Shown here: one piece after another, positions 1-48,247 of the stretch | How the letters are laid out: each line of letters starts with the position of its first letter | Numbering within the stretch: the first letter of the stretch is position 1 | Source of the DNA: a virus | Lineage: Duplodnaviria; Caudoviricetes | Virus record (IMG/VR): IMGVR_UViG_3300043499_000126 | Location: 1-50,596 of that record | Length of the DNA stretch: 50,596 nt | Strand: one strand, 5' to 3' | Notes under the pieces: generated by a model | What the model was told of the DNA's origin: nothing | The model's database searches: none | What the model saw: the letters and a program-made list of their open reading frames with translations, nothing else | Made by a program: the position numbers and the translations under genes

Positions 1-235
1 CACCACCTCCTGCAGTAGGCTGTCCAGCAGTGGGATTGAAGGCATAGGCTTGGTCGAGGAAGTTCTGACCACCGCCTGAAGCAAAGTCTTGATAGAGCTT
101 GTTAGCTCCACCCCATGCCTCGTTGGCACGATTGTAAGCTTCACCAGACCTTTGCTGTTGTTCATTCTCGAACTGGGTCTGGTAGCCCTGATTCTGAGTA
201 AGCTGCTTATTGACTTCCTTTTTGTTACCACCCAT
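1..235 (-). CDS. N-terminal part of a Gly-rich virion/ejection protein, open at the window edge (MGGNKKEVNKQLTQNQGYQ...AGQPTAGGG)
   Basis: Read by hand: ATG at 235 overlaps the TGA of 235..627; no stop to base 1; ends in Gly codons matching the poly-Gly start of 49480..50596. Confidence 0.75.
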   Translation of the reverse strand, partial: MGGNKKEVNKQLTQNQGYQTQFENEQQQRSGEAYNRANEAWGGANKLYQDFASGGGQNFLDQAYAFNPTAGQPTAGGG

Positions 236-627
236 CACAGCTCCTTTACGAGCAACTCACCGGGCTTGTCTGCCTGGAAGAAACGAAAATGTTTCTGCAT
301 TATAAGTGCGAAGTCTGGGTCAGTAACAAAGGCATATATCTCTTGTATACCTGCTTGCTCCGTGCCGCGAAACCCCTCAAGGATCAACATCCTAAAGGCG
401 TTAACGCGCGCACGGAGCGGAGCAGACTTGTCGAGAAAGAGCATGGCCTCTGCGAACAACTTGACTTGACCATACCCTATAATCTTGCCGTCATTTTCAA
501 CAACGGCATCGACAATGGACGATCTTCTGTTGGGCAGACCGTAGAGATCTGAGTGATGGTCTTCCCAGATCTTACTGATTGCTGGAACGTCGTCCCAACG
601 AAAAGATCGTAACTCGAGTTTAGACAT
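235..627 (-). CDS. GNAT-fold acetyltransferase-like protein
   Basis: Pattern LRSFRWDDVPAI...VVENDGKIIGYG resembles a GNAT N-terminus; sits just before the ejection-like genes, as GNAT-like gp13 does in T7-like phages. Confidence 0.55.
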   Translation of the reverse strand: MSKLELRSFRWDDVPAISKIWEDHHSDLYGLPNRRSSIVDAVVENDGKIIGYGQVKLFAEAMLFLDKSAPLRARVNAFRMLILEGFRGTEQAGIQEIYAFVTDPDFALIMQKHFRFFQADKPGELLVKEL

Positions 628-2032
628 CGGATCTTAATCTAGCCTTCAGACGCTTTAGCTCTTCAGTCAGCTCACGCTGAACTGCCTGTACAATGTCCTT
701 TCGATCCACTTCTCGCTCTCGTTCAGCACTCATCGCGTCGATGTATATGTTGTCCGGATAGCGAGACTTGAACTGTGAATGTGCGCCACGGATCGTATTG
801 CCAGTGATCACCAGGTCTTTGATGATCCCTGCTGTGTTGTCACCGTGGTTGGCACCGCCGATGCGGATGCCATATGATCCGTAGTTCCACGTGCAATCGA
901 GGATATGCAAGATGTCACAGGAGTCTTTGTCTCCATACTCTAGAAACGACGACCCTTCGTGAGTAATCTCCATCCCTCGAAATACCACTGACTCTGGACC
1001 TTCAGTGATAAGACAGAAACGACCAGGACCACCCATTGCTGTCTTGTTCGTACGATAGTTACCACCACGCATCTCTGCCGTTGTGCGCGGCAGGGACGAT
1101 GCATTGTCTGCGGTGAAGTCGTGGCCGGTGATATTGACGATGGCCCCAACCTCGGACATGGTGCAGTTTTCGACCACCAGATTCCGGAGTGATCCACCGT
1201 TCTTTGGTGTGAACATGAACCCATAACCATCCTGACCACTAGCCCAGGAATTGGTCAAGGTGCATCGACGGATAGTCACGTTATGACCATCCTTCAGCTC
1301 AAGCAAGTTCTTGGTCGGGATGGAGCTGTTACCCTTCCATACAATGGGCTTGGTGAATACAGCGTCCTCGATCGTGATTCCTGTTGGACGGCAGTTCGGG
1401 ATTTTCATCTTGTCCCCGCCGACCATGATGTTCTCGCTAGCAGCCTCGAAATAGCCACCTGAAATGAGAACAGGACCAGGAGCATTCAGGATAGCAATTG
1501 CCTGACTATCCTGTTTGGCACTGGAGTAAACGTCACGAATGTCACAATCCTTGACTGTAACATTGGCTGCGTTGATCTCGATGCCTCGCTTCCCACGATG
1601 AGTCGCGACGCGCACTCCTTCGATCTTCACATCGTCAGGTGCCTGGTCAACAGTTGTTTGATTCGTATCATTTTTACCAACACGAATGACACTGTCGTAG
1701 TTCGATGCACCTTCCAATGCTTCAATCCCGATGTGGTCGATGCCAACAGATACACGTAGCGCGGGATTGCCACTACCAGTGATCTTGTTTCCACCCTGAC
1801 CCCGTAGTTTAGTGTCAGGAGTGTCGAAGCTGTAACTGCCCTCGCAGACAAGATTGGGAGCAAGTGCGACATTACCACCTGCTGTCAATGTTGCCTGCAC
1901 ATCACCACAGTTGTTGATGACGGTCTCATCTTCAGGACCAGGGTCAGGTGGTTCAGAGCCAAGCTCGTCACGAATCTTCTGCGTGAGAACGTCGATCTCA
2001 TCGCAGTAACCAAGAATCGTATCGGGATTCAT
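620..2032 (-). CDS. Right-handed parallel beta-helix protein (tailspike/depolymerase-like), ~470 aa
   Basis: Repeated beta-helix rungs (NVTVKDCDI, GITIEDAVF, NVTIRRCTL, NLVVENCTM, DLVITGNTI); start moved to ATG 2032, which overlaps the upstream TGA (ATGA). Confidence 0.75.
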   Translation of the reverse strand: MNPDTILGYCDEIDVLTQKIRDELGSEPPDPGPEDETVINNCGDVQATLTAGGNVALAPNLVCEGSYSFDTPDTKLRGQGGNKITGSGNPALRVSVGIDHIGIEALEGASNYDSVIRVGKNDTNQTTVDQAPDDVKIEGVRVATHRGKRGIEINAANVTVKDCDIRDVYSSAKQDSQAIAILNAPGPVLISGGYFEAASENIMVGGDKMKIPNCRPTGITIEDAVFTKPIVWKGNSSIPTKNLLELKDGHNVTIRRCTLTNSWASGQDGYGFMFTPKNGGSLRNLVVENCTMSEVGAIVNITGHDFTADNASSLPRTTAEMRGGNYRTNKTAMGGPGRFCLITEGPESVVFRGMEITHEGSSFLEYGDKDSCDILHILDCTWNYGSYGIRIGGANHGDNTAGIIKDLVITGNTIRGAHSQFKSRYPDNIYIDAMSAEREREVDRKDIVQAVQRELTEELKRLKARLRSDV

Positions 2033-2697
2033 TTCTGCCCCTCGGGACGATTGAGTAGCTTCTTGAGCAGCACCAGCGTGGCTGCTTCTGAGGGACCGCC
2101 TCCACCAGTCTGAGGAGGTGCTGTGGCGGTGCCCGGCTTGACCTCGACGTCGATGTCGCCCTTGCAGCGCAGCGAGGTCAAACTGTCCATGACGATCGGC
2201 AGATTGACTGGGCCATGTGCGTGGAGTGGCTGTGCCATCGCGGTTTTGAGCGACTCGATCTCCGTATGGAGAGGCTTTGTCGCCTCGTCGATCATCGCCT
2301 GGCATTCTTCCTTGGTCAGACCCTGAGCAGGAGGCTGAGTTCCACCACCAGATTCTCCGGGTGTGACGATGGGAGGTCCACCGAGATCACGCCATTCCCA
2401 CTCAAGCCGATGTGGGCTTCCTGCTGCCGCATCCTTCAGTGGTGAGAAGGGATGGGTGTAATAGCCCTTGTCGTCAGGAGTCGCCGTCGGGAGAAAGATC
2501 CTTCCTGCGATGCGACCGTCACTGCCGATCTGCTGCGTCATCGCATTGAATGGCATGTCCGCTGTTGGCTTGACATACTCCGCATACCCCGCTGGAATGC
2601 CACTCTCACCAAGGACAGTCTCGTAATCGTCGGCAGGCTGTCCCGGTGACTTCTTAATGGTGTCGAAAAACAACCGTGCGTATTCGTCGCTAGACAT
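2029..2697 (-). CDS. Hypothetical protein with Pro/Gly linkers and a short coiled coil
   Basis: 222-aa ORF overlapping both neighbours in the operon. Confidence 0.7.
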   Translation of the reverse strand: MSSDEYARLFFDTIKKSPGQPADDYETVLGESGIPAGYAEYVKPTADMPFNAMTQQIGSDGRIAGRIFLPTATPDDKGYYTHPFSPLKDAAAGSPHRLEWEWRDLGGPPIVTPGESGGGTQPPAQGLTKEECQAMIDEATKPLHTEIESLKTAMAQPLHAHGPVNLPIVMDSLTSLRCKGDIDVEVKPGTATAPPQTGGGGPSEAATLVLLKKLLNRPEGQK

Positions 2698-4033
2698 GAG
2701 CTTTACCCTTCAAAAGAATCGCTCTGAGATTTGCGACGGGATCACTTCTTGCCGTTATGACCTCGAAGTATGGATCGACAAACTTGGGAACGTCTTCGAA
2801 CCACCCGTCGTAGCTGTAGAGAACTAACATATCTGTATAGTTATGAATTACCTCCATAAGTGCCATCGCCTTGGACTCTGGCACTTCATACAGTCGTTGG
2901 ATTGCAATAAGCGTAAGATCGACTTCTTCCCACGCTCGGTGATCAAAAATGTCCAGTTCTAAATACTTGATGCCCTGTGCGCCACTGTCAATGACAGAAG
3001 GTTCGCAATCAATCCCGTAAAGAAACGTGCTAGGGTGCGCCCTTTGAACTGCTTTGAGAAGCTGCCCTGTGCCACAACCCAGGTCTAGAACCTTGCCCTT
3101 TATCTCAGGCAGGATAGAAACAATGAAGTCGTGTGCATTCTGCATGGACTCAAGTGAGTTAAATCCATTCCAATGTTTATTAAATTTAAGTGGTATAACA
3201 TTGGAGAATGGAAACTGATTGCCACTTGCGCCATATCTAGGATAGTCGTTACTATGTAGATTGAGTATAACTTTGTGTGCAAGTGCATCACTTGCGTAAG
3301 TTGTCTTTAGAACCGGAGTGACCACCATCGCAATGCCATGTAATGACGTCCACTGCATTGGCATGGACAATAAATCTCTCAACCAATTCATCTCCCTATT
3401 TAACTTATTCTTGTCCATTAATTCTAGAATCTCTTGCCCTCGTTTGACACTGGGTCTGCAGTCTACAGAACAAGGAAGGTGGAAAACTCCCCTGATCCCA
3501 ACGTGGCGGAGTAGCACGTTGTTGTAGACTGCATTCTTTTGATCCTTAGACTCAAAGGTTAGGGCTGTGTAGTCTCTCCACCCCGACTCCTTCCAATGCT
3601 TTTGAAAAGCCCTAACACAACAGTCAGGAAAGTCAAGCATGTGACCAATAGTGATATCGTCTTGAGCGCGCCACGCATCTAGAAACCTCTCTGGTTCTAA
3701 ACCAAAGTAAACTCGATAGGTGAATTGCTTACCAGATTCATATGGGATACTAGCATTCCCATAAGCTCCCTGGGCCGCACCATCAACACCTACGATAGCC
3801 ATTTGGACGTTATGTTTAAGTGCCCAGACCTGTAAGTCTGGTAGGTCTAAAGGATTAACACTTTGTAATATTCCAGGTCGCAACCCATCAATTAGTGTAA
3901 GTAACTCAACACCTTTCCATAGATTTGAGAGGGCATGTATCTTTCCTTGCCAGTACTCTCGTGCAGCTTCTGATGTCCAGACAACACGAAGGAAATCTGG
4001 AACTATAAAATCTAGTCTTTCGACTTTGCCCAC
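2690..4033 (-). CDS. Two-domain protein: N-terminal Cys/His-motif domain (DUF483-like) plus C-terminal class I SAM-dependent methyltransferase
   Basis: GHMLDFPDCC and FHLPCSVDC motifs; SAM-binding motif I KVLDLGCGTG followed by LYGID. Confidence 0.75.
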   Translation of the reverse strand: MGKVERLDFIVPDFLRVVWTSEAAREYWQGKIHALSNLWKGVELLTLIDGLRPGILQSVNPLDLPDLQVWALKHNVQMAIVGVDGAAQGAYGNASIPYESGKQFTYRVYFGLEPERFLDAWRAQDDITIGHMLDFPDCCVRAFQKHWKESGWRDYTALTFESKDQKNAVYNNVLLRHVGIRGVFHLPCSVDCRPSVKRGQEILELMDKNKLNREMNWLRDLLSMPMQWTSLHGIAMVVTPVLKTTYASDALAHKVILNLHSNDYPRYGASGNQFPFSNVIPLKFNKHWNGFNSLESMQNAHDFIVSILPEIKGKVLDLGCGTGQLLKAVQRAHPSTFLYGIDCEPSVIDSGAQGIKYLELDIFDHRAWEEVDLTLIAIQRLYEVPESKAMALMEVIHNYTDMLVLYSYDGWFEDVPKFVDPYFEVITARSDPVANLRAILLKGKAHV

Positions 4034-5187
4034 TGTGGACGCTCCGTTAGAACTGTAGCTGGAATACCATAATCGGTATGATCACCATGATGATCTCCAT
4101 GAGGAATATCACCATGCCCGCTGTTCACTGGGTGAACGGCTGAAAGGAGATTAGCAATCTTTGTCCGCTTAGCACATTCACTTAAGAGCTGAGGTTGATC
4201 CCTCTCTATTGTTTCAAAGAGCGAGTACCAGAGTCTGCAGTTGACTGTTCTGTTTCTCCAATCTCCATCAATAGCAGTTCCGGGGCAATGACCCTTACAG
4301 AAAGCGAAGTATCGGCAATCCTTGCAGCCCCCGACCTCTTGAGGAGTGTGATAAAGAGCAATGTATCTCTCAAGTCCTGATACGTCAGCCTTGACCCAGT
4401 TGACCCCGTCCTTATTAGTTCGACCACAATTAGACATCTGTCCACTGGGTGAAACTCCTTGCACTGCAGCAGTCGTCTGTGGATCGCAATGATTCCATAC
4501 ACACGTTACACTTGGCTCGTACTGTGTGAGAAGTTTCTTGATATCAGCAAACGGGAGAACGCTCAGTTTAGAAGTCTTTGACCATTCATAGAGTTCTAAG
4601 TAGGTTTCGATTTGTCGTTCTTCCGAGAGCGCAAGCCCATCTCGGCCGCAATCGATCTCCATCTCATGGAGATTAAGATGCCTAATCCCAAGAGAGCTAA
4701 GAGTATCAAACCACTTGCAAAGGCGAGGAAGGTCATTGTTACCCCGATGGATCGTACAGATGATCGAAGGGATGATCCCTAAGTTACAGAGCTTCTTGAT
4801 TGCAATCTCTGTTTGGAGTGTCAGCTCGTCTGAGCAGCGCACACTATTCATATCACCTGGACCATCTATCGAGATACCTACGCCTACTTTGTATTTAGCG
4901 AACAACTCAATATGTTCGTCGGTGATAAGTGACCCGTTGGTTTGGATTCCATTACTTCCAAATCTTTCAAGTCCCCAAGCCCACACCTCCTCGAGATGTT
5001 TGATAGGAGCAAGGAGCGGTTCTCCTCCAAAGACAGCAAAGTTTTGACCAAGTCTATCAAGTTGTTTCTGTGCTTTAGACCAATCTCTTGGGACATTGAT
5101 ATTACCTGCTTCCCTCATTGGGTCTTGATAGCAGTATCCACACTTGATGTTACACGCAATTCCGACAGGTAGATATTCTACGCTCAT
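4012..5187 (-). CDS. Radical SAM/SPASM-domain enzyme (peptide-maturase-like) with an HxD-repeat tail
   Basis: CNIKCGYC (CxxxCxxC), FGGEPLL, IQTNGSL, ISIDGP; SPASM-type cysteines CVWNHC...CGR...CKDCRYFAFCKGHC...C. Confidence 0.93.
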   Translation of the reverse strand: MSVEYLPVGIACNIKCGYCYQDPMREAGNINVPRDWSKAQKQLDRLGQNFAVFGGEPLLAPIKHLEEVWAWGLERFGSNGIQTNGSLITDEHIELFAKYKVGVGISIDGPGDMNSVRCSDELTLQTEIAIKKLCNLGIIPSIICTIHRGNNDLPRLCKWFDTLSSLGIRHLNLHEMEIDCGRDGLALSEERQIETYLELYEWSKTSKLSVLPFADIKKLLTQYEPSVTCVWNHCDPQTTAAVQGVSPSGQMSNCGRTNKDGVNWVKADVSGLERYIALYHTPQEVGGCKDCRYFAFCKGHCPGTAIDGDWRNRTVNCRLWYSLFETIERDQPQLLSECAKRTKIANLLSAVHPVNSGHGDIPHGDHHGDHTDYGIPATVLTERPQWAKSKD

Positions 5188-6005
5188 GGTCCGATCAATA
5201 CTGGATTATCAACATGAGGAAGATCCCCATGTACTGCATCATTATGGTCTACGTGTGGTTGATCACCATGAGGGACATCCCCATGCCCACCTTCTGGAAC
5301 GTCTGTATGTGGTGTATCTGAGTAATGGTCCTGATGTACTGTATCGTGATGCGGTGTATCATTATGGAAATCTTGATGATTAGCATCATCATGGGTATCA
5401 CAATGGAATTGATTACCGTCATAATGGTTATCGGTATGATCGCCATGACCTGTAGGTATAGAATTTGAGTAATAATAGCAATCATCATGAACCTTATTAA
5501 GAGCTGAACCACTATCCCCATGCGAATCACCATGACCTAGATCATCATGTGCGTCGATAAAGCTATCACCATGTGGTGAATCTGAATAGAGATCATTATG
5601 AATCACATCATTATGTGGTCCAGGAGGTGCATCTACGTGAACAGATTGATCTGTATGATCAACATGAGCCGCAACTCCACCTGTATCTGTATGAACTACA
5701 TCTTCATGTGCACGATATGACCACGAACCACCCGCTTGAACCCAGTGTAAAGTTGTAAATTCAGCCCAGAGTGATCCTTGCAAAGCCTGAGCATCACCAT
5801 GCATCAGAGGGCCAACGACTTTGTATTCCCTATCTGCCGTCTGATTGATGTAATGAAGATCAGGCCCCTCAACCCAGAGGGAACCTGCGATAGCTCCTAC
5901 AATGCCACCGACGAGAATACCATTCCAAGCCCGCTCATTTCCGTCTGAGCCGACGTAGCGGAGAGTATCTCCCTCAATCCAGAGTGAGCCTGCGAGCTTT
6001 GGCAT
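5184..6005 (-). CDS. His-X-Asp repeat protein (putative radical SAM substrate, probably tail-associated)
   Basis: About 29 HxD triplets; N-terminal ~99 aa with three GSLWxE repeats; TAATG and ATGA overlaps couple it to the tail gene upstream and the rSAM gene downstream. Confidence 0.85.
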   Translation of the reverse strand: MPKLAGSLWIEGDTLRYVGSDGNERAWNGILVGGIVGAIAGSLWVEGPDLHYINQTADREYKVVGPLMHGDAQALQGSLWAEFTTLHWVQAGGSWSYRAHEDVVHTDTGGVAAHVDHTDQSVHVDAPPGPHNDVIHNDLYSDSPHGDSFIDAHDDLGHGDSHGDSGSALNKVHDDCYYYSNSIPTGHGDHTDNHYDGNQFHCDTHDDANHQDFHNDTPHHDTVHQDHYSDTPHTDVPEGGHGDVPHGDQPHVDHNDAVHGDLPHVDNPVLIGP

Positions 6006-6607
6006 TACGGAACTGCCCAGTAATCAACACCAACTGGAATGATGAGACGATTCATGATGTGCAGGGTCATATCACCACGCATGACCATACCACCAATTGT
6101 CGCTGCTCGATTAGAAACATTGATACAAAAATCACCCTTACCCGTTCCAGCTTGGACAAAAAGACCGAAACTCTGATTCGCTGCGGGATTACCTGCGATA
6201 TGAACTCCATAAATTCCAGGCGTAGGATTAGCTGCAATATTGGTCATGTATGCAGTTCCGGTCTGGTTGAATGTCCCGTTTGAAGTTACGTTAAGAAGTG
6301 TCCCTCCTGTAATAGCAACAGCATTGGCATTCTGGACTGCCATTGTGCCAAGACCAAAGTTGATACGCGCGCCTGCTGCATTGGCAGATCCTGACCCACC
6401 GCCATCTACAGATAGGACTTGATCGACAAAGGCCGCACCGTCCCATTCCTGGAATTTCACAGGGGCGCGCACCAGCTTTATTGATCCAGTCGGAGGACCA
6501 GTAAGTGGGATCTTTTGCAGAGTAATTGCGTCAATATCCCGATTCTTTGCCTCGTCGACAAAGAGGACGTAATTACTGGTTATTGTCGGTTTTGACCAAT
6601 CCGCCAT
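6005..6607 (-). CDS. Tail fibre-like protein
   Basis: Fibre-type segment GGGSGSANAAGARINFGLGTMAVQNANAVAITGG; located in the tail module. Confidence 0.65.
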   Translation of the reverse strand: MADWSKPTITSNYVLFVDEAKNRDIDAITLQKIPLTGPPTGSIKLVRAPVKFQEWDGAAFVDQVLSVDGGGSGSANAAGARINFGLGTMAVQNANAVAITGGTLLNVTSNGTFNQTGTAYMTNIAANPTPGIYGVHIAGNPAANQSFGLFVQAGTGKGDFCINVSNRAATIGGMVMRGDMTLHIMNRLIIPVGVDYWAVP

Positions 6608-6758
6608 CTGGATTCCTCAGGCGCTCAATTTCCTTGGACATCTCATCAGCTTGGATCATAAGAGCTTGAATTTGCTGTGCTTGCTTGCGTCGTACGATCT
6701 CAAGTTCACCAATGACCTGATAGAACTCTTCAATCGTGATCTCTAGTTTTGGCTCCAT
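6573..6758 (-). CDS. Small coiled-coil protein (possible fibre chaperone)
   Basis: 61 aa with a heptad pattern, between fibre genes. Confidence 0.5.
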   Translation of the reverse strand: MEPKLEITIEEFYQVIGELEIVRRKQAQQIQALMIQADEMSKEIERLRNPDGGLVKTDNNQ

Positions 6759-7114
6759 TATGGAATATCCGCAGAGTCAACACCTGATAGGACATCCCAG
6801 AAAGTAGAGATCTGTGAGAAGATCGCAGCATCTGAGGCTGACGTTTCAACACCGTTGTCAGTAATCTCAACTGTGCCGAGGAGGTTGGGACCACTAACGA
6901 CAGTGTATGCAGCTTGCTGGACCATCGCCTGTGAGTTGTTGAGAACGCTCGTCGCATAGGACGATCGTTTTGCATGATGAGGAGTAGAAGGTGCCTCCTC
7001 CTTTATGCCCCGAGCGGTCTGGAGCATGAGATAGTTCAGTCGATTTAGGAATGCTGGGTCGCGCGCCAGCTCCATTTGCAACGTGCTTTCTGACATTGGC
7101 ATTATAAACCTCAC
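6758..7114 (-). CDS. Hypothetical tail-module protein
   Basis: 118-aa ORF coupled to both neighbours. Confidence 0.6.
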   Translation of the reverse strand: MRFIMPMSESTLQMELARDPAFLNRLNYLMLQTARGIKEEAPSTPHHAKRSSYATSVLNNSQAMVQQAAYTVVSGPNLLGTVEITDNGVETSASDAAIFSQISTFWDVLSGVDSADIP

Positions 7115-8088
7115 GCAATCGGAAAGGCTGATACTCCACCTACAGTGATAGTTCCAGCCGGAAAACTACCACCACCATCAATTCTTCGATATAGATTTAG
7201 CTTAAGTTGGAAAGGTGCGGTCTGAATCATTCCATATGCATCACCAGCTAGCATCGCACTAGCACTGTATCCAGTTGGAGTAAACCCTGCTGGCATGTCG
7301 ATATAGATGATACTGGGTGTTGAGCTAAGAGTAATCGTTATGTAAAAATTTACACAAAAGGTTTTCCCGATTAGAGCGTATCTACAAGAAAGAGTTTGAG
7401 CCAGAGTTGCAGTCCCTAAATTCGCAGATACCACCGGAGCGAAATCAATCCAGTCCCCTAATGCTGTTGTGCGACCTCGCTCAAGGATTGCTCCAGTATT
7501 AGTAAAGGATAAAAGACCAGCAAAGGCACCGCTATTAGCAGGCGCGCGAAAGAATGAGACTGAATCAGTAAAGCTCGATACTCGAAAAAGCCAAGCGGGA
7601 TAGGACGTGTTATGAGGAACCCAAACAGATCCATTCCACCATGCGTTATGAAGATGCTCGAATCCGAACTGAGTATTCTGGATATATGCCTGAGCGCCTC
7701 CATTCAGAGTTACTCCAGCACTTGCTCCCATCACTGTTAACCAACTACCAGTAAGAGTTACATTCCCGTTACGATTCAGTCTAACAGCAGATTGCTCAAC
7801 AGTCTCTGCATCATTTATTGAGCGTAGTGCTAAGAGACCACCGTTATTTATTATATCAAATCTTCTTTGGTCTACGGGTCTACTTGGATCAATTATGAGA
7901 AGCCTTGCAGAGCTAGAAGAACTTATGATTTGAGTCTGATTAAAAGTATTTGGGGCATTCGTATATGCAACATTGGGAATCGTTCCCTCAGTGATGACTG
8001 CTCCGCTAAGAGGTAGCGGCAGCCATGACACTCCGTTGTCAACAGACTTTTCAAAAATGTGGGAAGTCTGGTTGTATCGCTGCCACAT
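7111..8088 (-). CDS. Tail fibre/receptor-binding protein, ~325 aa
   Basis: Beta-rich and rich in Gly/Ser/Thr/aromatics; C-terminal fibre-tip-like domain (CRYALIGKTFCVNFYI...DMPAGFTP); start set at ATG 8088 by TAATG overlap. Confidence 0.65.
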   Translation of the reverse strand: MWQRYNQTSHIFEKSVDNGVSWLPLPLSGAVITEGTIPNVAYTNAPNTFNQTQIISSSSSARLLIIDPSRPVDQRRFDIINNGGLLALRSINDAETVEQSAVRLNRNGNVTLTGSWLTVMGASAGVTLNGGAQAYIQNTQFGFEHLHNAWWNGSVWVPHNTSYPAWLFRVSSFTDSVSFFRAPANSGAFAGLLSFTNTGAILERGRTTALGDWIDFAPVVSANLGTATLAQTLSCRYALIGKTFCVNFYITITLSSTPSIIYIDMPAGFTPTGYSASAMLAGDAYGMIQTAPFQLKLNLYRRIDGGGSFPAGTITVGGVSAFPIA

Positions 8089-9554
8089 TAGACGACACCC
8101 CGAGCCTTCCAAGAAACCAGATATGTAACACGATTGCCAGTGGAATCCAGAGCAAAGACCTTAAAACCGACAGGATTGGGTATATCCACGAAATCGTAAA
8201 TGATAGTAATCGGCTCGATAGAATCGCATGTTGCAGTGATTGAATTAACATCCTTGAACAACTTATTGAATTTTACAGGCGTTCCATTAGTATGGTCTAC
8301 AGGGAGACCATCAACATTATGAATACCACCTGCATAGGCAATAACTTCACCACCATCTACCTCTCGTTTGACGTCAAGAGTAGTGGTCAATACGGTACAC
8401 TCTGCTAGAGCTTTATCACTTGAGCCTGTGAACTCAAGCCTCATCTTCAAGTAACGGAAGATAGGAACGAATTGCGATGGACCAACTGGAAGTGCAGTAT
8501 AAACAACACCATCACTAGAGTAAGATAGCTTTACTAGAACAGTGACCTCTGGAACTATCTGAATCAGTTGATAAGTAACTGTAACGATTGTATTCTGAAT
8601 CTCTATTCCATAGTCGATAACTTCTTCATACCAACCCGTTGTGAGCGTAGGCTGGATGTAGATTGGATAGCCAGCATTGATCTGGTCCTGTGGTGTATTC
8701 CACGATCTATTTACAAAATGCTGCTGCCAAGTTATATTAGTATCAACACACGCAATGAGGCTTGGCGTATTGGAGCGCACAACATTAAATTTCGTGCCAT
8801 TCAATCCGCTAATCTTCGTATCTAGAAGTTGGTAATCTGGTGGGGTATTGACGGTTGTAGTAACCTCCCCTATCTCACTCACATTACCAGCTATGTCGAT
8901 TGCTTCTACTCCATAGGTGTAATCCCCTGCGACTGTTTCAAAGGTTGATACAAACGTAGCGCGAAGCGCACCGTAAAGATTGTCGTTCCGATATATACGA
9001 TAGCGGTCAATCGTGAAGCTAGTTGTAGGAACAGTCCAATTTAGAAGAACGTTGTTATCAATTACTGCAGCTGTCACAACTGGCTTACCGGGAGAGATAA
9101 TTGTAATAGTTAGGCTCGCAAAGTTTGGTGAGTAGTTACCGAACGTATCAATAGTCTTAATCAGAAAGAAGTATGATCCAGATGGAAGAGGATCAAGTAG
9201 TATAGAAAGGGATGGGGTGCGCGTCACGAATGACGCAGAATCCCAAATCAACTCACCTGATCTACGAATCTCGTATAGACGAGCCGAGGCATTCGGAGCT
9301 TCCCATGACAAGTGAATGCCATTGAGCTGAACCTGACCTACAAAGTTCAGAGGCTCAGGAGATAGCCCTGTTCCACCTCCACCAATGATAGGTCTTATTG
9401 CTTGCTCAAGTGGCGCAATGGTCTGATAGATTAGCTGTACGTCCTTGTTGACATCACGAAGGATCTCCTTAAGGATCAGGACAGATCTTTCGTCATTTCC
9501 AAGGGCATCTATCCTTGCATCACGCTGTGGCTTAATGGGATGTTGTATCGCCAT
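8088..9554 (-). CDS. Tail protein with fibronectin type III-like domains, ~488 aa
   Basis: Fn3-like patterns (IHLSWEAP...YEIRR, VLLNWTVP...YRIYR...YGVEAIDIAGNVS); start at ATG 9554 by TAATG overlap. Confidence 0.7.
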   Translation of the reverse strand: MAIQHPIKPQRDARIDALGNDERSVLILKEILRDVNKDVQLIYQTIAPLEQAIRPIIGGGGTGLSPEPLNFVGQVQLNGIHLSWEAPNASARLYEIRRSGELIWDSASFVTRTPSLSILLDPLPSGSYFFLIKTIDTFGNYSPNFASLTITIISPGKPVVTAAVIDNNVLLNWTVPTTSFTIDRYRIYRNDNLYGALRATFVSTFETVAGDYTYGVEAIDIAGNVSEIGEVTTTVNTPPDYQLLDTKISGLNGTKFNVVRSNTPSLIACVDTNITWQQHFVNRSWNTPQDQINAGYPIYIQPTLTTGWYEEVIDYGIEIQNTIVTVTYQLIQIVPEVTVLVKLSYSSDGVVYTALPVGPSQFVPIFRYLKMRLEFTGSSDKALAECTVLTTTLDVKREVDGGEVIAYAGGIHNVDGLPVDHTNGTPVKFNKLFKDVNSITATCDSIEPITIIYDFVDIPNPVGFKVFALDSTGNRVTYLVSWKARGVV

Positions 9555-11416
9555 TACTGAGGCCTTGTTAGCCAGAGTTGACGAACAAATACCCACATCT
9601 TAGTAATAGTCAGATACTCTCCATTGTTCTGTAATACACCTCGGATTGTAATCTTCTCGCTTTGCGCATTGAAAGTCCTCATTGGATATATACCTGGAGC
9701 TATAGTTAGAGGAATGCCAGGCAGGTTATAAACCTGTCCGCCATCCAGACTTGTCACTGTTAGCCTGAGATTTCCTGAACCATAGGCGCGCAGTCTTATA
9801 CCACCGTGGTGAAAGACCTCACCCTTGGAATCGACAGGTAATTCACCAGTTTCCCAACGTGTGACTATTGCAACGTCATAGTCATTATGCTGTGTGATGT
9901 CAAGCTTCCTGATATTACCACCCTGTGTTGCATACCTGAAGATAATGTCCTTTGATACGAGATCATTATCAAGACCCATTGATAATGGGTAATGTGGAAA
10001 TGTCCAGAGAGACCACCTGATGTTCTTGGAGTTCAAGCCCTGTGTATAATCACCAACCAGAATTGCATTGGTGAATGTCGAACCATCTAGTGGTAGAGAA
10101 ATGTAGACGATTTGGTTATCCGAGTCGATTGCAACCTGGATCTTCTGGAAGTAAATCTTGGTAACTCGCTGCCAGATGTCCTTGACTTTCCAGGTTATCT
10201 CCTCCTCGAAGTTACCTGTAAACATCATTAGACCTCGACGCGAGGCTACTAGGTATTTGTCTACTGTATTTGAGTTGCGCTCGAATATCTTTCCTACACC
10301 ATGACACTCAGTTCCAACTGAGCCATCTAGCAGAGGAACTTGCCAGAACAGAGGCTGGTCGTTAGTTCCTTGTGTTACGTAGCATCTGTTGGATTTGAGT
10401 ATATACAGCGAGGATCGGAACTCGACGCAGTTTCTGACGCCCCCTCCGACCGTTGGCTCAACTTGAGCGAATCCTTCAACAGCGTTAAAAGACTCGGGTT
10501 CTCCAGCCTTGGAGATACGAACTGTGGCTGGGTTAGCATCCTCTCCCCAGACAACCATGCTTCCCTGATACGCGGTAATCCCAACCCCGGCAGGGATAGT
10601 GGGTAGCTGCTCAAGGATATAGTCGGCCTGGTCGACGAGATCAGCGTCGAAGTAGGAGATAGATTTAGTCGTTGTAACGTTGTCTGCGATTCTCCCTTGT
10701 GGAACGAAGAACCATTCTGCATTCTGATAGTCCCCGTTGAAATCGTTTGTTGCAGGGTCTGCGATGTTCTTGGTAGTAAAAAGAATGCGAGCGATAGTGC
10801 CAGCCGGACCAATAGGAATATTAGAAACTTCGATTGTCTTGTCGCCTGTATTAGTGATGTTTGCGAAAGCACCGAACTGAGTGATGAAACTTGTAGCTGT
10901 CTCGAAACCTACAGCGATGGCATGGATTCCCATATCGACCTTGCCACCCGCACCTTCTACTAGAGTCACACCGGGTGTAGGAGTAATAGCGACACCTCCT
11001 GCTACCTTGGCCGCACCTGTGCCTGTATAGTAGTAGACGTTCTGACCTGGCATACCTGTTATCCCATTGTGTGGAGTAATGTATGCCCTGTCAAAAAAGG
11101 TCTCCATTGAAAAGTCTGTCATTCCGGGAATCTGTAGGATTGGGCCTTTAGCAAGGTCCGACGAGTCCCACAGATTCCCGTCACCAACTAGGATTAGAAG
11201 TCTTGATACCTGTCCTGTGATTTTGTAGACATGAAACCTGACTACCTCACCACAGGTTATATCTGTGACGGACCCCTCCCGAGTATAGAACCCAGACGGT
11301 TTGTACCGTAGATTCAGAGCGGTCTTAAAGTGATCGATAGGGATGGCTTCATCCGGGCCTCGATCAAAGAGACCGTTAAAATCTGGTATCGGGACGGGAA
11401 CGTGGTTCTCGATCAT
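9554..11416 (-). CDS. Tail nozzle / DNA-stabilisation protein (P22 gp10- or T7 gp12-like)
   Basis: 620-aa beta-rich protein shortly downstream of the adaptor gene; size and position typical of a podovirus nozzle. Confidence 0.6.
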   Translation of the reverse strand: MIENHVPVPIPDFNGLFDRGPDEAIPIDHFKTALNLRYKPSGFYTREGSVTDITCGEVVRFHVYKITGQVSRLLILVGDGNLWDSSDLAKGPILQIPGMTDFSMETFFDRAYITPHNGITGMPGQNVYYYTGTGAAKVAGGVAITPTPGVTLVEGAGGKVDMGIHAIAVGFETATSFITQFGAFANITNTGDKTIEVSNIPIGPAGTIARILFTTKNIADPATNDFNGDYQNAEWFFVPQGRIADNVTTTKSISYFDADLVDQADYILEQLPTIPAGVGITAYQGSMVVWGEDANPATVRISKAGEPESFNAVEGFAQVEPTVGGGVRNCVEFRSSLYILKSNRCYVTQGTNDQPLFWQVPLLDGSVGTECHGVGKIFERNSNTVDKYLVASRRGLMMFTGNFEEEITWKVKDIWQRVTKIYFQKIQVAIDSDNQIVYISLPLDGSTFTNAILVGDYTQGLNSKNIRWSLWTFPHYPLSMGLDNDLVSKDIIFRYATQGGNIRKLDITQHNDYDVAIVTRWETGELPVDSKGEVFHHGGIRLRAYGSGNLRLTVTSLDGGQVYNLPGIPLTIAPGIYPMRTFNAQSEKITIRGVLQNNGEYLTITKMWVFVRQLWLTRPQ

Positions 11417-11730
11417 TATCCGAACTTCGGGAATTCTACTTCCATTGTCACAACGTCGCCTGTCACACCAGCGGGGTATGCGGCTGCCGCGAGCTGTGCG
11501 CCACCTGGAGCGTAGACCAAGAGCTTACCAGTTGCAGCGTCGTACTTGAAATTGTGATCTCCCTTGCTCATAAAGCCGACCATCACTGCGTTCTTGGTCG
11601 TACCGGGCTTTACCAAACCAGTAGGGACTTCACCACCTGTAACGTAGCTCCCTGAGAATGTCAAGGTTCCCAGAATCCGCATCGAACGAAATCCTGGTTC
11701 CTTTGATGTCTGTGCGAATGCGATAGGCAT
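11416..11730 (-). CDS. Small virion structural protein
   Basis: 104 aa, beta-rich; strong RBS (AGGAGG); structural context. Confidence 0.6.
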   Translation of the reverse strand: MPIAFAQTSKEPGFRSMRILGTLTFSGSYVTGGEVPTGLVKPGTTKNAVMVGFMSKGDHNFKYDAATGKLLVYAPGGAQLAAAAYPAGVTGDVVTMEVEFPKFG

Positions 11731-11772
11731 TTGTCCTCCTGTTAGACGGGACTTTCCGATAGGCTGGACTAC

Positions 11773-12414
11773 CTACCGGCGCGCGCGTCTGCTTGCACCA
11801 TACGGTCTCCGACGAAACCTGACTCCTTGCTGATTTCTTATCTCTGCATTGATGAGCATCGCCAGCTCGGTATTTGCCTCGCTATTGAGAATCGATGCTC
11901 TTTCAGCGTTGGACGCTCCAAAGGCTGAGGCGTTGGCCGCGCACTTTGCAGAGAGATATGGCTTTGAAAGTAGAATCGAAATGTTGGTATTCTCGCCAAG
12001 GATTGGTGTCAGACCCTTTCGATACCTTAGTCTGATTTCTCGATCAATCCTTGGAGAATTGATCTTTAATCCTTCCTCTCTCCAGTTCCAATACATAATG
12101 GAATCTGCCTTGAGGCTTTGATCCCAGTCTGATTCTGTAACTGGAAAGAATCCGTCTGTTGATCCTAGAGCACGTTCTTCCATCGAGATGGCTTGAACAA
12201 AATCAGCAGGCAGAGCAATAGTTGGATCAATAGCAGTAACTGGAATGATAGCCGACACTTCCTTCAAGGCGCGCACACCATTGAGGAAGAGATGCAACTC
12301 TAGCGTCCCATATGCACGACGCAGATAGGGAAGCAATTGGGTATAACCCCAAGTGAGCTTGCCTGCGTCGTTCATCAACGCAGCGGCTTCGTCCATGATT
12401 TCACTGGCTAGCAT
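11773..12414 (-). CDS. Head-tail adaptor (tail tubular protein A-like)
   Basis: 213 aa with helical N- and C-termini around a beta middle (TIALPADF); between capsid and nozzle genes. Confidence 0.6.
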   Translation of the reverse strand: MLASEIMDEAAALMNDAGKLTWGYTQLLPYLRRAYGTLELHLFLNGVRALKEVSAIIPVTAIDPTIALPADFVQAISMEERALGSTDGFFPVTESDWDQSLKADSIMYWNWREEGLKINSPRIDREIRLRYRKGLTPILGENTNISILLSKPYLSAKCAANASAFGASNAERASILNSEANTELAMLINAEIRNQQGVRFRRRPYGASRRARR

Positions 12415-13607: not shown

Positions 13608-14894
13608 TCAGTATCCGGCAGGAACGGCGAGGTTATCGACGTACGCGCACACCGCAGGATTCGTTACGTAGAGGTTGAACGAACCAACCACGTAGAAAAT
13701 CTGCGATGTCGCCACACCACCTGAAGTTCCACGAATCTCGAAGATCTTGCGACCATCGACCTCGTAGAAACCAGCAGGATGCATCTCCGCACGACCCCAG
13801 ACGGAACGCACGATGAAATCGATTCGTCGCTTGTCCCAGCTGTAGTGCTTGCGGATGCCGACTCCAGCAATCTGGAAGTTGTCGCCCTCACCGAAGTAGA
13901 GATCGACAGCCTGCTTGCCAGGAGTCTTGTTGATCATCATCACTGACTGGGCCATCTCTTCATAGGCCTGGACCTGACAGGGATGCATCCACGCTTCCGA
14001 CTTCGTGCCATGATCTTGACCGAGCCTGTCACCGATCTTATTCATGGCGAGTCGCGCATAGGGCAGGGCCAAGGCTGTCCCGTTTGCGTTGACCCGATTC
14101 GCACGAATCTCCGGGAACAAGGCTCGATCAAGTCCGAGCCACGATCCGGTTGATGCGTTCGAGATATGGTAAGGAACACCATATAGCGAGACCGGAGGCG
14201 TGGAAGCGAGACCCGAAACGACCAACTTGTCGCCAGGAACTGCCGGAGCAGCGACAGTGCCGTTGAACCTGACCTGCTTGTTCTGCAAGTCGAGCAGATC
14301 GATCGGAGCTTCACCGTTGACGCTACCACCGAGGGTGAAAGCTCTCCTCGTGGTGAGCGTGCTGTTGTACACTGACAGCAACTGCCCGTGACGCATCAGG
14401 CGCACACCGAAGCCATCAACGTCACAAGTGTATGTGTCCTTGTTGGCAGTGGTTGAGACCGCCGAGATAGTTCCCAACACGCCTGTGCCGTCTGAGGATA
14501 CGGCAAGGGCGTCAACTGCCCGACGGAACTCAACCATGCCAGAGGCAAGAAGCTTCTTGACCGACTGGACGACAGCCTTGCGCGCGTCATCAGTCGCCCA
14601 TTCAGTCTTCTTGTGCCATTCGATTGCGTGGCGCAAGTGAACCGTATTGATGACCGCCTTCTCGTAGGTCGGTCCTTCACCGCGTCCGAGGTCGCCGCCT
14701 GCGGGATCGAAATGGCCGAACCGTCCGCCGGGCCGAATCTCCAACGGGATACGCATATCCCGATTCGAGATCTGCTCGACTTCTCCCTTTTCGATCATGG
14801 AATAGAAAGTGTCTTCCTTGTCGAAGAGAACAGGGATCTTGGTTTTGACCTTCTCAAGCTCCGTGGCAGCTACCTGTGTTTCGTCCATTGCCAT
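13608..14894 (-). CDS. Major capsid protein
   Basis: 428 aa directly after the scaffold-like gene; strong RBS (AGGAG); downstream hairpin. Confidence 0.8.
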   Translation of the reverse strand: MAMDETQVAATELEKVKTKIPVLFDKEDTFYSMIEKGEVEQISNRDMRIPLEIRPGGRFGHFDPAGGDLGRGEGPTYEKAVINTVHLRHAIEWHKKTEWATDDARKAVVQSVKKLLASGMVEFRRAVDALAVSSDGTGVLGTISAVSTTANKDTYTCDVDGFGVRLMRHGQLLSVYNSTLTTRRAFTLGGSVNGEAPIDLLDLQNKQVRFNGTVAAPAVPGDKLVVSGLASTPPVSLYGVPYHISNASTGSWLGLDRALFPEIRANRVNANGTALALPYARLAMNKIGDRLGQDHGTKSEAWMHPCQVQAYEEMAQSVMMINKTPGKQAVDLYFGEGDNFQIAGVGIRKHYSWDKRRIDFIVRSVWGRAEMHPAGFYEVDGRKIFEIRGTSGGVATSQIFYVVGSFNLYVTNPAVCAYVDNLAVPAGY

Positions 14895-14906
14895 GACAGG
14901 TAACTC

Positions 14907-16178
14907 CTACCGAGACTTACTTTTCGGCGTATACTTGCCATTCAAGAAATCAATGTCGCTGGTCTTGTTCCAATTAACGTCCCTTGCCGAAGGGGTTTTA
15001 CCGGCAGAGACAGGACCGCGACCTGACGCTGGAATGTTAGTTCGCTTTGGCTGAGTCTCGATTGCTGGTTTTGCTGAATGTTGACTGACCTGAAGGCCTG
15101 CCTCAGCGCGGAGCTTCTGTCGAACCGATGGAATCAGAGACTTAGCGCCCCGCAAGTAGGCGTTTATGATTTCCTTGCGTGTCTCTTTTGGAAACCCGGT
15201 CGATTCTGCTTTGCGCCACAGAGCATTCATTTGACGAAGATGACGTGCATCTTTAGCTAGAAGTTGATCGACCTCTTGAAATATAGAATCCTTCAGAGTC
15301 TTTTTGAGGAAGGGAGATATCGACTTGTCGTTATCTATCCCTTTCGCGATTTCTTTGATTGTTTCTTCCCGACCTTCGCCGTAGCATTCGTTTGTGAAGT
15401 CTGCGGCTTTTTCTTGCCAGAATGCGTCGCGTTCCGCTTTGACCCGTGCCTCTGCTTCATTGGGAACCTCAGGCTTTCTGTCAAGGTTGGGGATCTCGGG
15501 CTTGCCGTAGAGATATTTTGCGATATGAAGTGCGGCATTCCGCAGATTGACGTTCTCAGTCCCCTCCGCGTCTCGGATAGCGCTCCTGAGAACATCGTTG
15601 ACTGCGGGCAGAGTTACCTCTGCATAAAGCTCCATCGACTTAGCCTTGATGGTAGGCAAGAAGTCTCTGGTTATTTTCTTGAAAGCTTCCTTGTCTCCCT
15701 GCTCAACGTCAGCAAGCAACTCCTTGATAGAACCACCAAGGATGGTACTTTCCAGACGATTGAAGTAGGTTGCCCGTTGAGCGGCATCTCGGGCATCCTC
15801 AGGTGTCGCAAATATCTCAGAATACGCACGGTCATTGCGTATTGTCTCAGCAAGCTTTGGAAAGTCCTTGAAGATAGTCGGAAACTTGGACTTGATGTCC
15901 TTAAAACGTAGTTGTCCTTCTGGAACTTCGGTGTCGTCTGTCTCGGGTTCAGGGGTTTTGGCAGCGACTTTTTCTTCTTCCTCGACAGGTTCTTCATCAA
16001 AGGTGACTTCTCCAGGCTCCTCGGTTGCAGGTTCTTCCTCTGTTACACCTGCTTCGTCAGAGGCCGGGGATTCGTCAGCTTCGTTCAGAATGTCAAGGTC
16101 AGACTTTGAATCAGAAGATCCAGAAGGACCACCAAGCACATCGGAGTCGTCAAACAGTAATTGAAACTTAGGGAACAT
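14907..16178 (-). CDS. Capsid scaffolding protein
   Basis: Acidic disordered N-terminus, helical body and basic C-terminus; between portal and capsid. Confidence 0.7.
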   Translation of the reverse strand: MFPKFQLLFDDSDVLGGPSGSSDSKSDLDILNEADESPASDEAGVTEEEPATEEPGEVTFDEEPVEEEEKVAAKTPEPETDDTEVPEGQLRFKDIKSKFPTIFKDFPKLAETIRNDRAYSEIFATPEDARDAAQRATYFNRLESTILGGSIKELLADVEQGDKEAFKKITRDFLPTIKAKSMELYAEVTLPAVNDVLRSAIRDAEGTENVNLRNAALHIAKYLYGKPEIPNLDRKPEVPNEAEARVKAERDAFWQEKAADFTNECYGEGREETIKEIAKGIDNDKSISPFLKKTLKDSIFQEVDQLLAKDARHLRQMNALWRKAESTGFPKETRKEIINAYLRGAKSLIPSVRQKLRAEAGLQVSQHSAKPAIETQPKRTNIPASGRGPVSAGKTPSARDVNWNKTSDIDFLNGKYTPKSKSR

Positions 16179-33061: not shown

Positions 33062-33290
33062 ACTGTGCAACGGGCCTTCTCATAGAGAAGGTCAGTTAGG
33101 CAGCCTAGACACTTGGCCTGCTGATCACAGGCAAAGGGGAACTGGACTTGTGGATCGAGCTAAGTCGCTATGACGTCCCTTGTTACGGTTGGTTACAAAT
33201 CCCCATGACCGACAATGCCTTTACGGTCACTATTCTACCCGGTGCGCGCGTCGCACCTTAAAGATGACGCGGAGAGGACATTTCAAGAGT

Positions 33291-40994: not shown

Positions 40995-41343
40995 GGTGCG
41001 CGAAAACAAAACATTCTACGATCTCCTCAAGGCGTCGGGCGACCTGCACACACTGAAGGCCAATGAATACTCGGGAGATGCTGACCCTTATGCGAACTTT
41101 AAGTTCGCCGGTCAAATGTCCAAGCTGTTCGTTGATCCTGATGATTCTGGTTTTGTTGGTCGTATTGCAGAGCGCCTGTTTCGTCTGGCCAATCTAGAGA
41201 ACAGCGGTAAAACACCTCAGAACGAACCGATTGAAGATACGGAGCGCGAGTTGTGTATGCTCGTCGTTCTCTGGATGTCAATGCGTAAGGACCGACGTCG
41301 AGGTCAGGTAGCAGCGCAATCAATCAATGACAACGTCACCTAA
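40984..41343 (+). CDS. DUF1599-like (nucleotide-modification-associated) protein
   Basis: KANEYSGDADPYANF...RL.NL...EPIEDT pattern; start placed at ATG 40984. Confidence 0.5.
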   Translation: MRRKVRENKTFYDLLKASGDLHTLKANEYSGDADPYANFKFAGQMSKLFVDPDDSGFVGRIAERLFRLANLENSGKTPQNEPIEDTERELCMLVVLWMSMRKDRRRGQVAAQSINDNVT

Positions 41344-45147: not shown

Positions 45148-45295
45148 TCGACCTCCCGAGCAAATGACCTGTCCTGATTGCGACAGTACAGCTTTCTACA
45201 AGGGCGCTCAGGACGGTCATTACATCTATGTGTGCTCCAAGATGCATATGACAAGGATACGAATTCCTAGGGCCGTGGCACCCTCGGAAGGCTAG
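45137..45295 (+). CDS. Small zinc-ribbon protein
   Basis: CPDC...CSKMH; last plus-strand gene, converging on 45267. Confidence 0.5.
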   Translation: MEPNRPPEQMTCPDCDSTAFYKGAQDGHYIYVCSKMHMTRIRIPRAVAPSEG

Positions 45296-48239: not shown

Positions 48240-48247
48240 GGTTCACC

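Follow-up and report, generated by a model that had tools for sequence, protein, structure and literature searches.

A His-x-Asp repeat protein, a radical SAM/SPASM enzyme and a DUF483-methyltransferase protein form a putative maturation module in a phage tail operon

Background

Why does a tailed phage encode a radical S-adenosylmethionine (SAM) enzyme among its tail genes, directly beside a gene product in which the triplet His-x-Asp (HxD) occurs 29 times? This question is raised by the virus contig IMGVR_UViG_3300043499_000126, the whole record of which, 50,596 bp in length, was analysed here (the window). Three overlapping genes on its minus strand encode a 273-aa HxD-repeat protein, the proposed substrate (5184..6005), a radical SAM enzyme of 391 aa with a SPASM region (4012..5187), and a 447-aa fusion of a DUF483 domain with a class I SAM methyltransferase, which starts with GTG (2690..4033). 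Radical SAM enzymes are known to crosslink small peptides that bacteria secrete. An earlier note on this DNA had proposed that the enzyme of this phage modifies a probable virion protein instead, and this interpretation is still the best available one and is partly supported: the link between the enzyme and its substrate is now backed by comparative genomics, while the remaining parts of the proposal are what we infer. The explanation which we favour with modest confidence, on the basis of sequence comparisons, is that the three genes constitute one maturation module, whose radical SAM enzyme would modify the HxD triplets, most likely to His-Asp cyclophanes, on a probably tail-associated protein. 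The nearest characterized counterparts are the triceptide synthases, SPASM radical SAM enzymes that join the ring of an aromatic residue i to the C-beta of residue i+2 (PMC11002830, PMC11499958).

The HxD-repeat protein and its linkage to the radical SAM enzyme

The repeat protein contains exactly 29 HxD triplets, in agreement with the count of about 29 given in the earlier note, and 28 of them are found in its last 176 residues. Shuffling this segment 2000 times yielded only 5.7 ± 2.0 triplets (maximum 13), which rules out chance composition as the source of the tract (residues 99-273; 5187..5711, minus strand; isoelectric point 4.7). Almost all His (29 of 33) and most Asp (29 of 39) of the protein are part of a triplet. 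The triplets are spaced by 3 to 11 residues, and none of the family members examined has a fixed middle residue; because neither spacing nor middle residue is conserved, it is the triplet itself that is kept and not a structural repeat. Orthologues at the same gene position in four related viral loci (L005-L008) contain 30 to 37 HxD triplets, and many individual His and Asp columns of the protein are kept in our alignment (A4). In the same alignment many triplets of one homologue (P0210) read H-x-N and not H-x-D. Position 3 may thus also accept Asn, which some triceptide motifs have there as well. The His-rich alternative-frame open reading frames (ORFs) that span the tract on both strands (5144-5533) are by-products of the repeat and not genes.

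The tract is preceded by an N-terminal domain (residues 1-98; 5712..6005, minus strand) with three G-S-x-W-[IV]-E/D...L-x-Y repeats. A phmmer search of this domain against 1.84 billion representative sequences retrieved 286 proteins at E<=1e-3, and 62 of the 150 matches listed carry at least five HxD triplets; no usable match to the domain was present in the ESM Atlas.

An argument for a functional connection between repeat protein and enzyme comes from other viruses. A single-protein search of IMG/VR recovered eight loci, and in all of them an HxD-rich ORF is followed by the radical SAM gene and a DUF483 gene. A profile search extended this to 52 loci with close relatives of the enzyme, 49 of which have an HxD-rich ORF (at least six triplets) on the same strand and 48 a DUF483 domain, fused to a methyltransferase in 41 of these 48 cases; some of the viral loci duplicate each other or repeat the first eight. 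Among 28 loci with only a distant radical SAM enzyme, DUF483 is absent throughout and a single HxD-rich ORF is found. Homologues of the enzyme lacking HxD neighbours, which the earlier note had named as evidence that would speak against its proposal, are thus not the rule among close viral relatives.

The same arrangement exists in isolated phages. With tblastn the Thermus phages phiLo, phiMa and Cumys were detected, whose radical SAM enzymes show 47-49% identity to that of the window (47-48% for phiMa and Cumys). In the latter two phages a protein of 343/344 aa, which contains 53/54 HxD triplets and the same N-terminal G-S-x-W-I-E/D-G repeats, is encoded ahead of the radical SAM gene, which is followed by a gene for a DUF483 protein without a methyltransferase domain; the whole set is located directly after the baseplate and tail-collar-fibre genes. 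The window shows this very gene order, and the conserved synteny beside tail genes for which the earlier note had suggested a search of viral databases is therefore real and extends to unrelated phages. In phiLo (L003, 7001-8449) the enzyme comprises 483 aa with nine HxD triplets in an extended tail; IS605-type transposase fragments take the place of the separate HxD gene, and the fused tail may thus be the only substrate nearby. Other loci depart from the common organization by multiplication: L011 (6001-7725 and 7732-9129), like some viral contigs, has tandem radical SAM paralogues, both of them HxD-tailed, ahead of the DUF483-methyltransferase gene, and L131 has three HxD-rich ORFs besides that of the enzyme.

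The genes of Cumys and phiMa were reported as a 'rSAM module' in 2024 (PMC11437467), together with similar loci in prophages and with fusions of DUF483 to radical SAM or methyltransferase domains; the word histidine does not occur in the main text of that article. The remark of the earlier note that it knew of no such system in a phage structural module therefore has to be given up for the module as such and stands for the association of a radical SAM enzyme with HxD repeats, for which no paper was found in full-text searches (most subscription journals and all supplements lay outside their scope). Taken together, comparative genomics strongly supports the link between the two genes, and it is likely that the radical SAM enzyme acts on the HxD tract.

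The radical SAM enzyme carries an HxD tail of its own

The enzyme belongs to the radical SAM superfamily (PF04055, 49.6 bits, cut-off 29.5 bits), and the three cysteines of its CxxxCxxC motif (C12, C16 and C19; 5131..5154, minus strand) are invariant in 37 homologues. The SPASM consensus is Cx9-15Gx4C ... Cx2Cx5Cx3C ... C. This seven-Cys pattern was read from the sequence of the enzyme, as C234-x14-G249-x4-C254, C288-x2-C291-x5-C297-x3-C301 and C317, and all its positions are invariant in the 37 homologues; the Pfam output contained no row for a SPASM hidden Markov model. The SPASM region (C229 to C317; 4237..4503, minus strand), which also holds R256 and N258, would provide the cysteines for two auxiliary Fe-S clusters, and the assignment made in the earlier note is correct in this respect. 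The enzyme matches PHROG 1802 (E = 8e-26). When it was searched against protein databases, the clusters that matched at E<1e-112 numbered more than 120, and contigs of 46-51 kb were the source of many.

Its C-terminus shows a short version of the substrate motif (residues 358-372, HGD..HGD.HGDHTD; HGDIPHGDHHGDHTD; 4072..4116, minus strand). At least three HxD triplets within the last 70 residues are present in 107 of 120 homologues (P0001-P0120), with the consensus HGD-PHGD-HGDHTD; the tail-less homologues among the 120 look like the bacterial branch. Longer tails with 9-19 HxD triplets are found in phiLo, L011, L131, L133 and L134. Judging from its sequence, the tail of the enzyme is probably a built-in substrate, or else a docking or substrate mimic. 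Enzyme-substrate fusions of such a kind are known from borosins.

Motif variants in bacterial relatives

Close relatives of the enzyme (41-51% identity) were also found at 21 loci on bacterial contigs from at least nine phyla. DUF483 is encoded beside the radical SAM enzyme in 20 of them, the exception stopping at a contig edge, and at four loci both hits are within one ORF. HxD-rich ORFs are present at 14 of the 21 loci and range from peptides of 63-106 aa to proteins of 868-990 aa with an HxD C-terminus. Further loci encode variants of the motif: the protein upstream of the radical SAM enzyme of a Fulvivirga contig (L028) ends in seven H-x-K triplets, a protein of a member of the Spirosomataceae (L029) ends in four copies of P-Y-I-K, i.e. 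four YxK triplets, an alphaproteobacterial protein (L032) combines Y-x-D and H-x-D, and the protein beside the cyanobacterial enzyme (L012) has the short end HVDFHVDF. No aromatic-x-X tract was found at L027, L030 and L031. The HxK, YxK and YxD variants point to a shared rule, aromatic (His or Tyr)-x-(Asp or Lys), as expected from the likeness to triceptides suggested in the earlier note.

The large bacterial substrates (L028, 2841-5975; L029, 3506-6004; L016, L018 and L025) have in common a repeated, helical-looking segment in front of the aromatic-x-X tail. The YxD/HxD protein of L032 (14-3967) has a Matrixin (Peptidase_M10) domain in addition (E = 6.7e-15), and the L028 protein shows a weak Pfam match, below the cut-off, to a phage minor tail protein (E = 1.3e-3).

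The enzymes vary together with their motif. All 21 enzymes whose substrates are of the Asp type have R256, while N258 is kept in 19 of them and H147 in 20, and an HxD-encoding Cytophagales genome (G654) also has the Asp-type residues at positions 147, 256 and 258. In the two Lys-type enzymes (L028 and L029, respectively), both of which are without an HxD tail, R256 is replaced by Leu and Asn, N258 by Asp in both, and H147 by Thr in both; the replacements at 256 and 258 are confined to these two loci. In characterized triceptide synthases the preference for position 3 is set by an enzyme residue, D214 in HtkB and H204 in HaaB (PMC11499958), and the covariation of R256, N258 and H147 is suggestive of a charge swap of this kind. 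In a quick tree the enzymes of L028 and L029 form one clade, and the switch between Asp and Lys is thus a single evolutionary event, which is a point against resting much on it. A search for further Lys-type systems, in 401 genomes each from the phylum and from the order to which the L028 genome belongs, returned only the query and the Asp-type G654.

Proposed modification of the HxD triplets

How might the enzyme act on its substrate? In the mechanism that we propose, the SPASM-type radical SAM enzyme (4012-5187) would operate together with its DUF483 partner, recognize the aromatic-x-Asp motif, here His-x-Asp, and modify as many as 29 copies of it in the protein that is encoded directly upstream (5184-6005). 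The most likely chemistry, by analogy with triceptide synthases, would be abstraction of the Asp C-beta hydrogen by a 5'-deoxyadenosyl radical and subsequent formation of a C-C bond to C2 of His, resulting in one small cyclophane (-2 Da) per triplet. Methyl groups may be added by the methyltransferase fused to DUF483. Since the genes are translationally coupled to those for a tail fibre and a tailspike, the product would be made late; it would begin with the three-repeat domain, and the tract behind this domain would form a rigid His/Asp surface that withstands proteases and heat and may bind metal.

There are precedents for the individual elements of this chemistry. YxdB connects C3 of Tyr to the C-beta of Asp, and C2 of His is connected to the C-beta of Ala by HaaB, of Lys by HtkB and of Arg by YhhB; furthermore, ScaB tolerates a change from His to Tyr in its substrate (PMC11002830, PMC11499958). 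By this analogy, a His-Asp cyclophane is put forward tentatively, at somewhat less than even odds. To our knowledge, no HxD cyclophane has been characterized.

A number of observations, which are given here and in the following section together with the alternatives they favour, weigh against our explanation. Among the best 25 of 47 NCBIfam rows obtained for the enzyme, the top rows belong mostly to peptide maturases, including the cyclophane-forming AmcB, beside rows for anaerobic sulfatase-maturating enzymes (anSME), yet all scores (AmcB 69.9, TIGR04083 64.8, DynA 63.6 and anSME 62.0 bits) are far below the cut-offs, which are 300-450 bits for the top rows. No curated family cut-off is thus reached, and this includes the enzymes that form three-residue cyclophanes (3-CyFE), with 69.9 bits compared to a cut-off of 425 bits for AmcB, 56.5 to 445 for YhhB, 40.1 to 310 for GrrM, 35 to 450 for XyeB and 30.6 to 370 for FxsB. 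The anSME model scores nearly as well as the cyclophane synthases, and the closest solved relative by sequence is an anSME (4k36, E = 1e-10), although only over the N-terminal 130 residues. The triplets might therefore be modified by a different chemistry, such as an anSME-like oxidation at the Asp C-beta, an epimerization, a C-N or C-O link, or an insertion of carbon; the HxsA protein of the HXS anti-phage system, for instance, shows a change of +8 Da and not of -2 Da at one SHRSS motif (PMC13128918). We regard this as rather unlikely, as the aromatic-x-(Asp/Lys) rule with interchange of His and Tyr is the signature of triceptide substrates, and an oxidation or epimerization of the third residue would not require an aromatic first residue. 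A role as a genuine anSME was rejected, because the score is far below the cut-off and neither a sulfatase gene nor a C/S-x-P-x-R substrate was detected among the neighbours examined. For residues 1-345 of the enzyme with three 4Fe-4S clusters and SAM, paired with the C-terminal 46 residues of the HxD protein, a complex prediction scored 0.00 ('no answer') in a run without controls and bears neither way.

Is the HxD protein part of the virion?

Several findings argue for an association of the HxD protein with the phage tail. In two unrelated phage types the module is located inside tail operons, with translational coupling to the adjacent genes. Proteins of 700-1180 aa from other phages have the HxD tract as their C-terminus, and of nine such large proteins tested, three have a ConA-like lectin domain and two of these three additionally match a 'virion structural protein' PHROG. 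The N-terminal domain also occurs without HxD triplets, and ten proteins of this kind were picked for comparison. Five of them have a family match, namely an H-type lectin domain in one, a ConA-like match below the cut-off plus a 'virion structural protein' PHROG in one, PEGA domains in one, GLUG/M26-N domains plus a PHROG of unknown function in one, and only that PHROG in one further protein; the other five are without a match. The HxD protein is probably a tail-associated appendage, and we lean slightly towards the window protein being carried on the virion.

On the other side, the window HxD protein has no match to a structural-protein family in Pfam or PHROG, nor do six of the nine large HxD proteins, and the listing of a literature search showed no virion proteomics for phiMa or Cumys. 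The bacterial versions look exported or peptide-like and not structural; several of the substrates begin, in our own reading and not as the result of a prediction tool, with Tat-like twin-arginine signals. The neighbours of three bacterial radical SAM-DUF483 pairs fit this picture: PqqD is found only in the cyanobacterium (L012, region of 3909-5112 and 8793-10028), NTP_transf_5 in the cyanobacterium and a planctomycete (L030), and P-loop/HprK-like proteins, with weak matches below the cut-off, in both of these and in an actinobacterium (L031). We take such neighbours to be typical of cassettes resembling those for RiPPs (peptides made on the ribosome and modified after translation). The modified protein could accordingly be soluble or released, for example as a metal-sequestering, host-manipulating or anti-defence factor that is merely co-expressed with the tail genes. 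Such a role seems doubtful given the position of the gene within the tail operon, with translational coupling to the genes before and after it, in two phage types that are not related, the fusion of the tract to large lectin-bearing proteins, two of them with virion-structural matches, and the lack of an exporter or protease: the searches of the neighbours with Pfam, NCBIfam and PHROG revealed no protease or transporter family, just as the earlier note had reported.

Even unmodified, His/Asp tracts could bind metal. Iron is bound by the HxH motifs of trimeric tail fibres (T4 gp37; PMC11705849, citing Bartual 2010), and for the Cumys/phiMa module a modification of DNA was proposed, since homologues of the radical SAM and DUF483 proteins adjoin deazapurine DNA-modification genes in some cyanobacteria (PMC11437467). 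The HxD tract might then be nothing but a metal-binding fibre segment, with the radical SAM enzyme, DUF483 and the methyltransferase acting elsewhere, for instance on phage DNA. This is very improbable: the HxK and YxK variants would lose a His/Asp metal site and yet keep the aromatic-x-X pattern, the triplet spacing is irregular, most of the enzymes have an HxD tail themselves, and the linkage to HxD is near-universal in the close clade and absent for distant radical SAM enzymes. In addition, PqqD and the HVDFHVDF-ending protein are encoded next to the cyanobacterial enzyme (L012), where no deazapurine genes were seen within 6 kb, as judged from ORF termini and a Pfam comparison of three ORFs.

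The most far-reaching version of our explanation, in which a radical SAM maturase of the RiPP type serves phages to build a tail-associated poly-cyclophane appendage, with 29 His-Asp macrocycles per chain here and up to about 90 in relatives that would lock imidazole/carboxylate pairs into a rigid, protease- and heat-proof, multivalent, metal-chelating surface for adsorption or host recognition, and in which the tail of the enzyme is modified as well and DUF483 represents a new class of obligatory partner, is a speculation that we consider unlikely to hold in all its parts.

The DUF483-methyltransferase protein

By its distribution DUF483 is an obligate partner of the radical SAM family. The domain occupies residues 1-276 of the third gene product (3206..4033, minus strand) and is recognized by PF04467 at residues 120-204 (32.5 bits, cut-off 25). 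Among 51 sequences C138, C139, D154, C188, C192 and H232 are invariant; in the Thermus phages the third Cys of the CC...C...C set is a His. Fold and profile provide no functional assignment for DUF483, which also weakens our case. The AlphaFold2 model of the domain is of high confidence (pLDDT 90.4; 91 for the whole protein), and the fold that it matches best in a wide VIA-align search, 2guk_B (Z = 9.4), belongs to a protein without a known function, while a match to NleE (Z = 5.4) is within the noise range of the tool. Foldseek with the domain found nothing in the PDB at E<=1e-3 and with the whole protein only methyltransferases, a profile of DUF483 matched no PDB sequence at E<=1, and in the ESM Atlas the domain matched DUF483 clusters only, 16-20% of whose members carry the family.

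The second part of the protein (residues 286-447; 2693..3178, minus strand) is a class I SAM methyltransferase with the SAM motif LDLGCGTG at residues 316-323, scores just above the cut-offs of Methyltransf_25 (27.2 bits, cut-off 27) and MTS (25.3 bits, cut-off 23), and Foldseek matches of probability 1.00 to NodS, ChlM, TehB and BpumL. The fusion of a Cys-motif domain with a class I methyltransferase described in the earlier note was thus recovered, with DUF483 as the Cys-containing part.

Genomic setting

An unbroken run of genes on the minus strand extends from a SU10-type head-tail adaptor gene (11773-12414) at its start down to a gene for a beta-helix protein. It includes a tail/host-specificity ORF (8088-9596, minus strand; PHROG 'tail protein and host specificity', E = 5e-16) and, directly upstream of the HxD gene, a tail-fibre-like ORF of 200 aa (6005..6607, minus strand) with matches to the tail fiber PHROGs phrog_10316 (E = 1.8e-5) and phrog_25747 (E = 4e-4), which is kept at this position in L004-L008. 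The three genes of the module are placed between this ORF and the beta-helix ORF. The stop of the fibre-like ORF and the start of the HxD gene overlap in TAATG (6003-6007), the HxD and radical SAM genes in ATGA (5184-5187), the radical SAM and DUF483-methyltransferase genes by 22 nt (4012-4033), and the latter and the next gene, ORF222 (2029..2697, minus strand), by 8 nt (2690-2697); these ORFs and junctions agree throughout with the earlier note. ORF222 has no match in Pfam, NCBIfam or PHROG, is translationally coupled on both sides, and is also found downstream of the module in L004-L007 and L009. The chain is thereby one gene longer than noted earlier and comprises five overlapping minus-strand genes from the tail-fibre-like to the beta-helix ORF.

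The tailspike-like beta-helix protein (620..2032, minus strand) is just above the cut-off of Pfam Beta_helix (26.1 compared to 25.9 bits). As listed, its ORF (620-2305, 561 aa) would overlap ORF222 by 277 nt; its true start is likely Met92 of the listed ORF (nt 2032), because the orthologue in L005 aligns from residue 92 and this start creates an ATGA junction with ORF222.

Elsewhere the window encodes a large terminase (23915-25591), an SNF2 helicase (33180-34928) and a family A-type DNA polymerase (41327-43792), and no tRNA genes were found in it. Eight of its large ORFs (428, 423, 831, 1579, 367, 990, 410 and 362 aa; within 13608-23399 and 45267-50568) match no PHROG at E<=1e-5; known families cover this phage poorly, and a megablast search with window positions 1-12000 against 50,697 phage records found no relative at the DNA level.

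Significance

The HxD module appears to be a triceptide-like maturation system that acts on whole proteins encoded in phage tail operons, with dozens of modifications on each chain. If this is true, it would be the first natural-product-style crosslinking of a structural protein of a virion, and the published suggestion of a DNA modification for the module would be replaced. It would furthermore reveal a new, widespread HxD/HxK/YxK branch of triceptides common to phages and bacteria, with a new class of substrates, probably a new His-Asp cyclophane, DUF483 as a new partner domain, and a natural specificity switch between R256/N258 (Asp-type) and Asp258 (Lys-type). A role of covalently rigidified His/Asp surfaces in the virion, be it in stability, metal capture or receptor binding, would then have to be considered. 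With Cumys and phiMa, which grow on T. thermophilus HB8, there are cultured family members, and the system is therefore directly testable.

Comparison with known systems

With anSME the enzyme of the window shares the SPASM architecture and the absence of a RiPP recognition element (RRE), and anSME abstracts a C-beta hydrogen from a residue of a protein, as is proposed for the window enzyme; however, the anSME model TIGR03942 aligns to residues 7-173 only, and the score given above compares to a cut-off of 349.45 bits, which sets the enzyme apart from this family. The HxH segments of T4 gp37 resemble the HxD protein in being His-rich and periodic, in their phage tail setting and in possible metal binding. 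Those sites are structural, recur at regular positions of a trimeric beta-structure and do not depend on a maturase, whereas the HxD triplets of the window are irregularly spaced, which argues against a regular metal lattice, and co-occur with a dedicated radical SAM enzyme.

The HXS anti-phage system offers another parallel, as its His-x-Ser repeat effector HxsA, which has a peptidoglycan-binding domain, is matured by the radical SAM enzymes HxsB and HxsC with the small partner HxsD (PMC13128918). In both systems a His-x-X repeat protein is, or in our case would be, matured by a radical SAM enzyme with a partner. HXS is a bacterial defence system, with five HxS repeats, two radical SAM enzymes plus HxsD, N-terminal cleavage and export (PMC13128918); in contrast, the window has HxD repeats, one radical SAM enzyme and DUF483, and the models of HxsB and HxsC are not among the best 25 of the 47 NCBIfam rows of its enzyme, which places it outside of HXS. 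The 'rSAM module' of Cumys and phiMa (PMC11437467) is of the same gene family and order; the version of the window differs by its methyltransferase domain, and the phages are unrelated at the DNA level (no megablast match).

In comparison to the triceptide synthases (YxdB, HaaB, HtkB, YhhB, XncB/XyeB and OscB/GrrM), the module of the window stands out in several respects. Its enzyme family reaches no curated model, has an obligatory DUF483 partner and carries an HxD tail of its own; entire proteins of 270-1180 aa, each carrying 29-93 triplets, would serve as substrates in place of short precursor peptides; and the genes are located in phage tail operons, without a protease or exporter. What connects the window with these systems, and in particular with the 3-CyFEs, is a radical SAM enzyme with a SPASM region and without an N-terminal RRE, encoded next to a substrate with repeated aromatic-x-X triplets, here 29 HxD. 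Characterized triceptides provide precedents for His or Tyr at position 1 as well as for Asp or Lys at position 3, and, as for HtkB and HaaB, a charge-matched residue of the enzyme seems to track position 3 in the window family.

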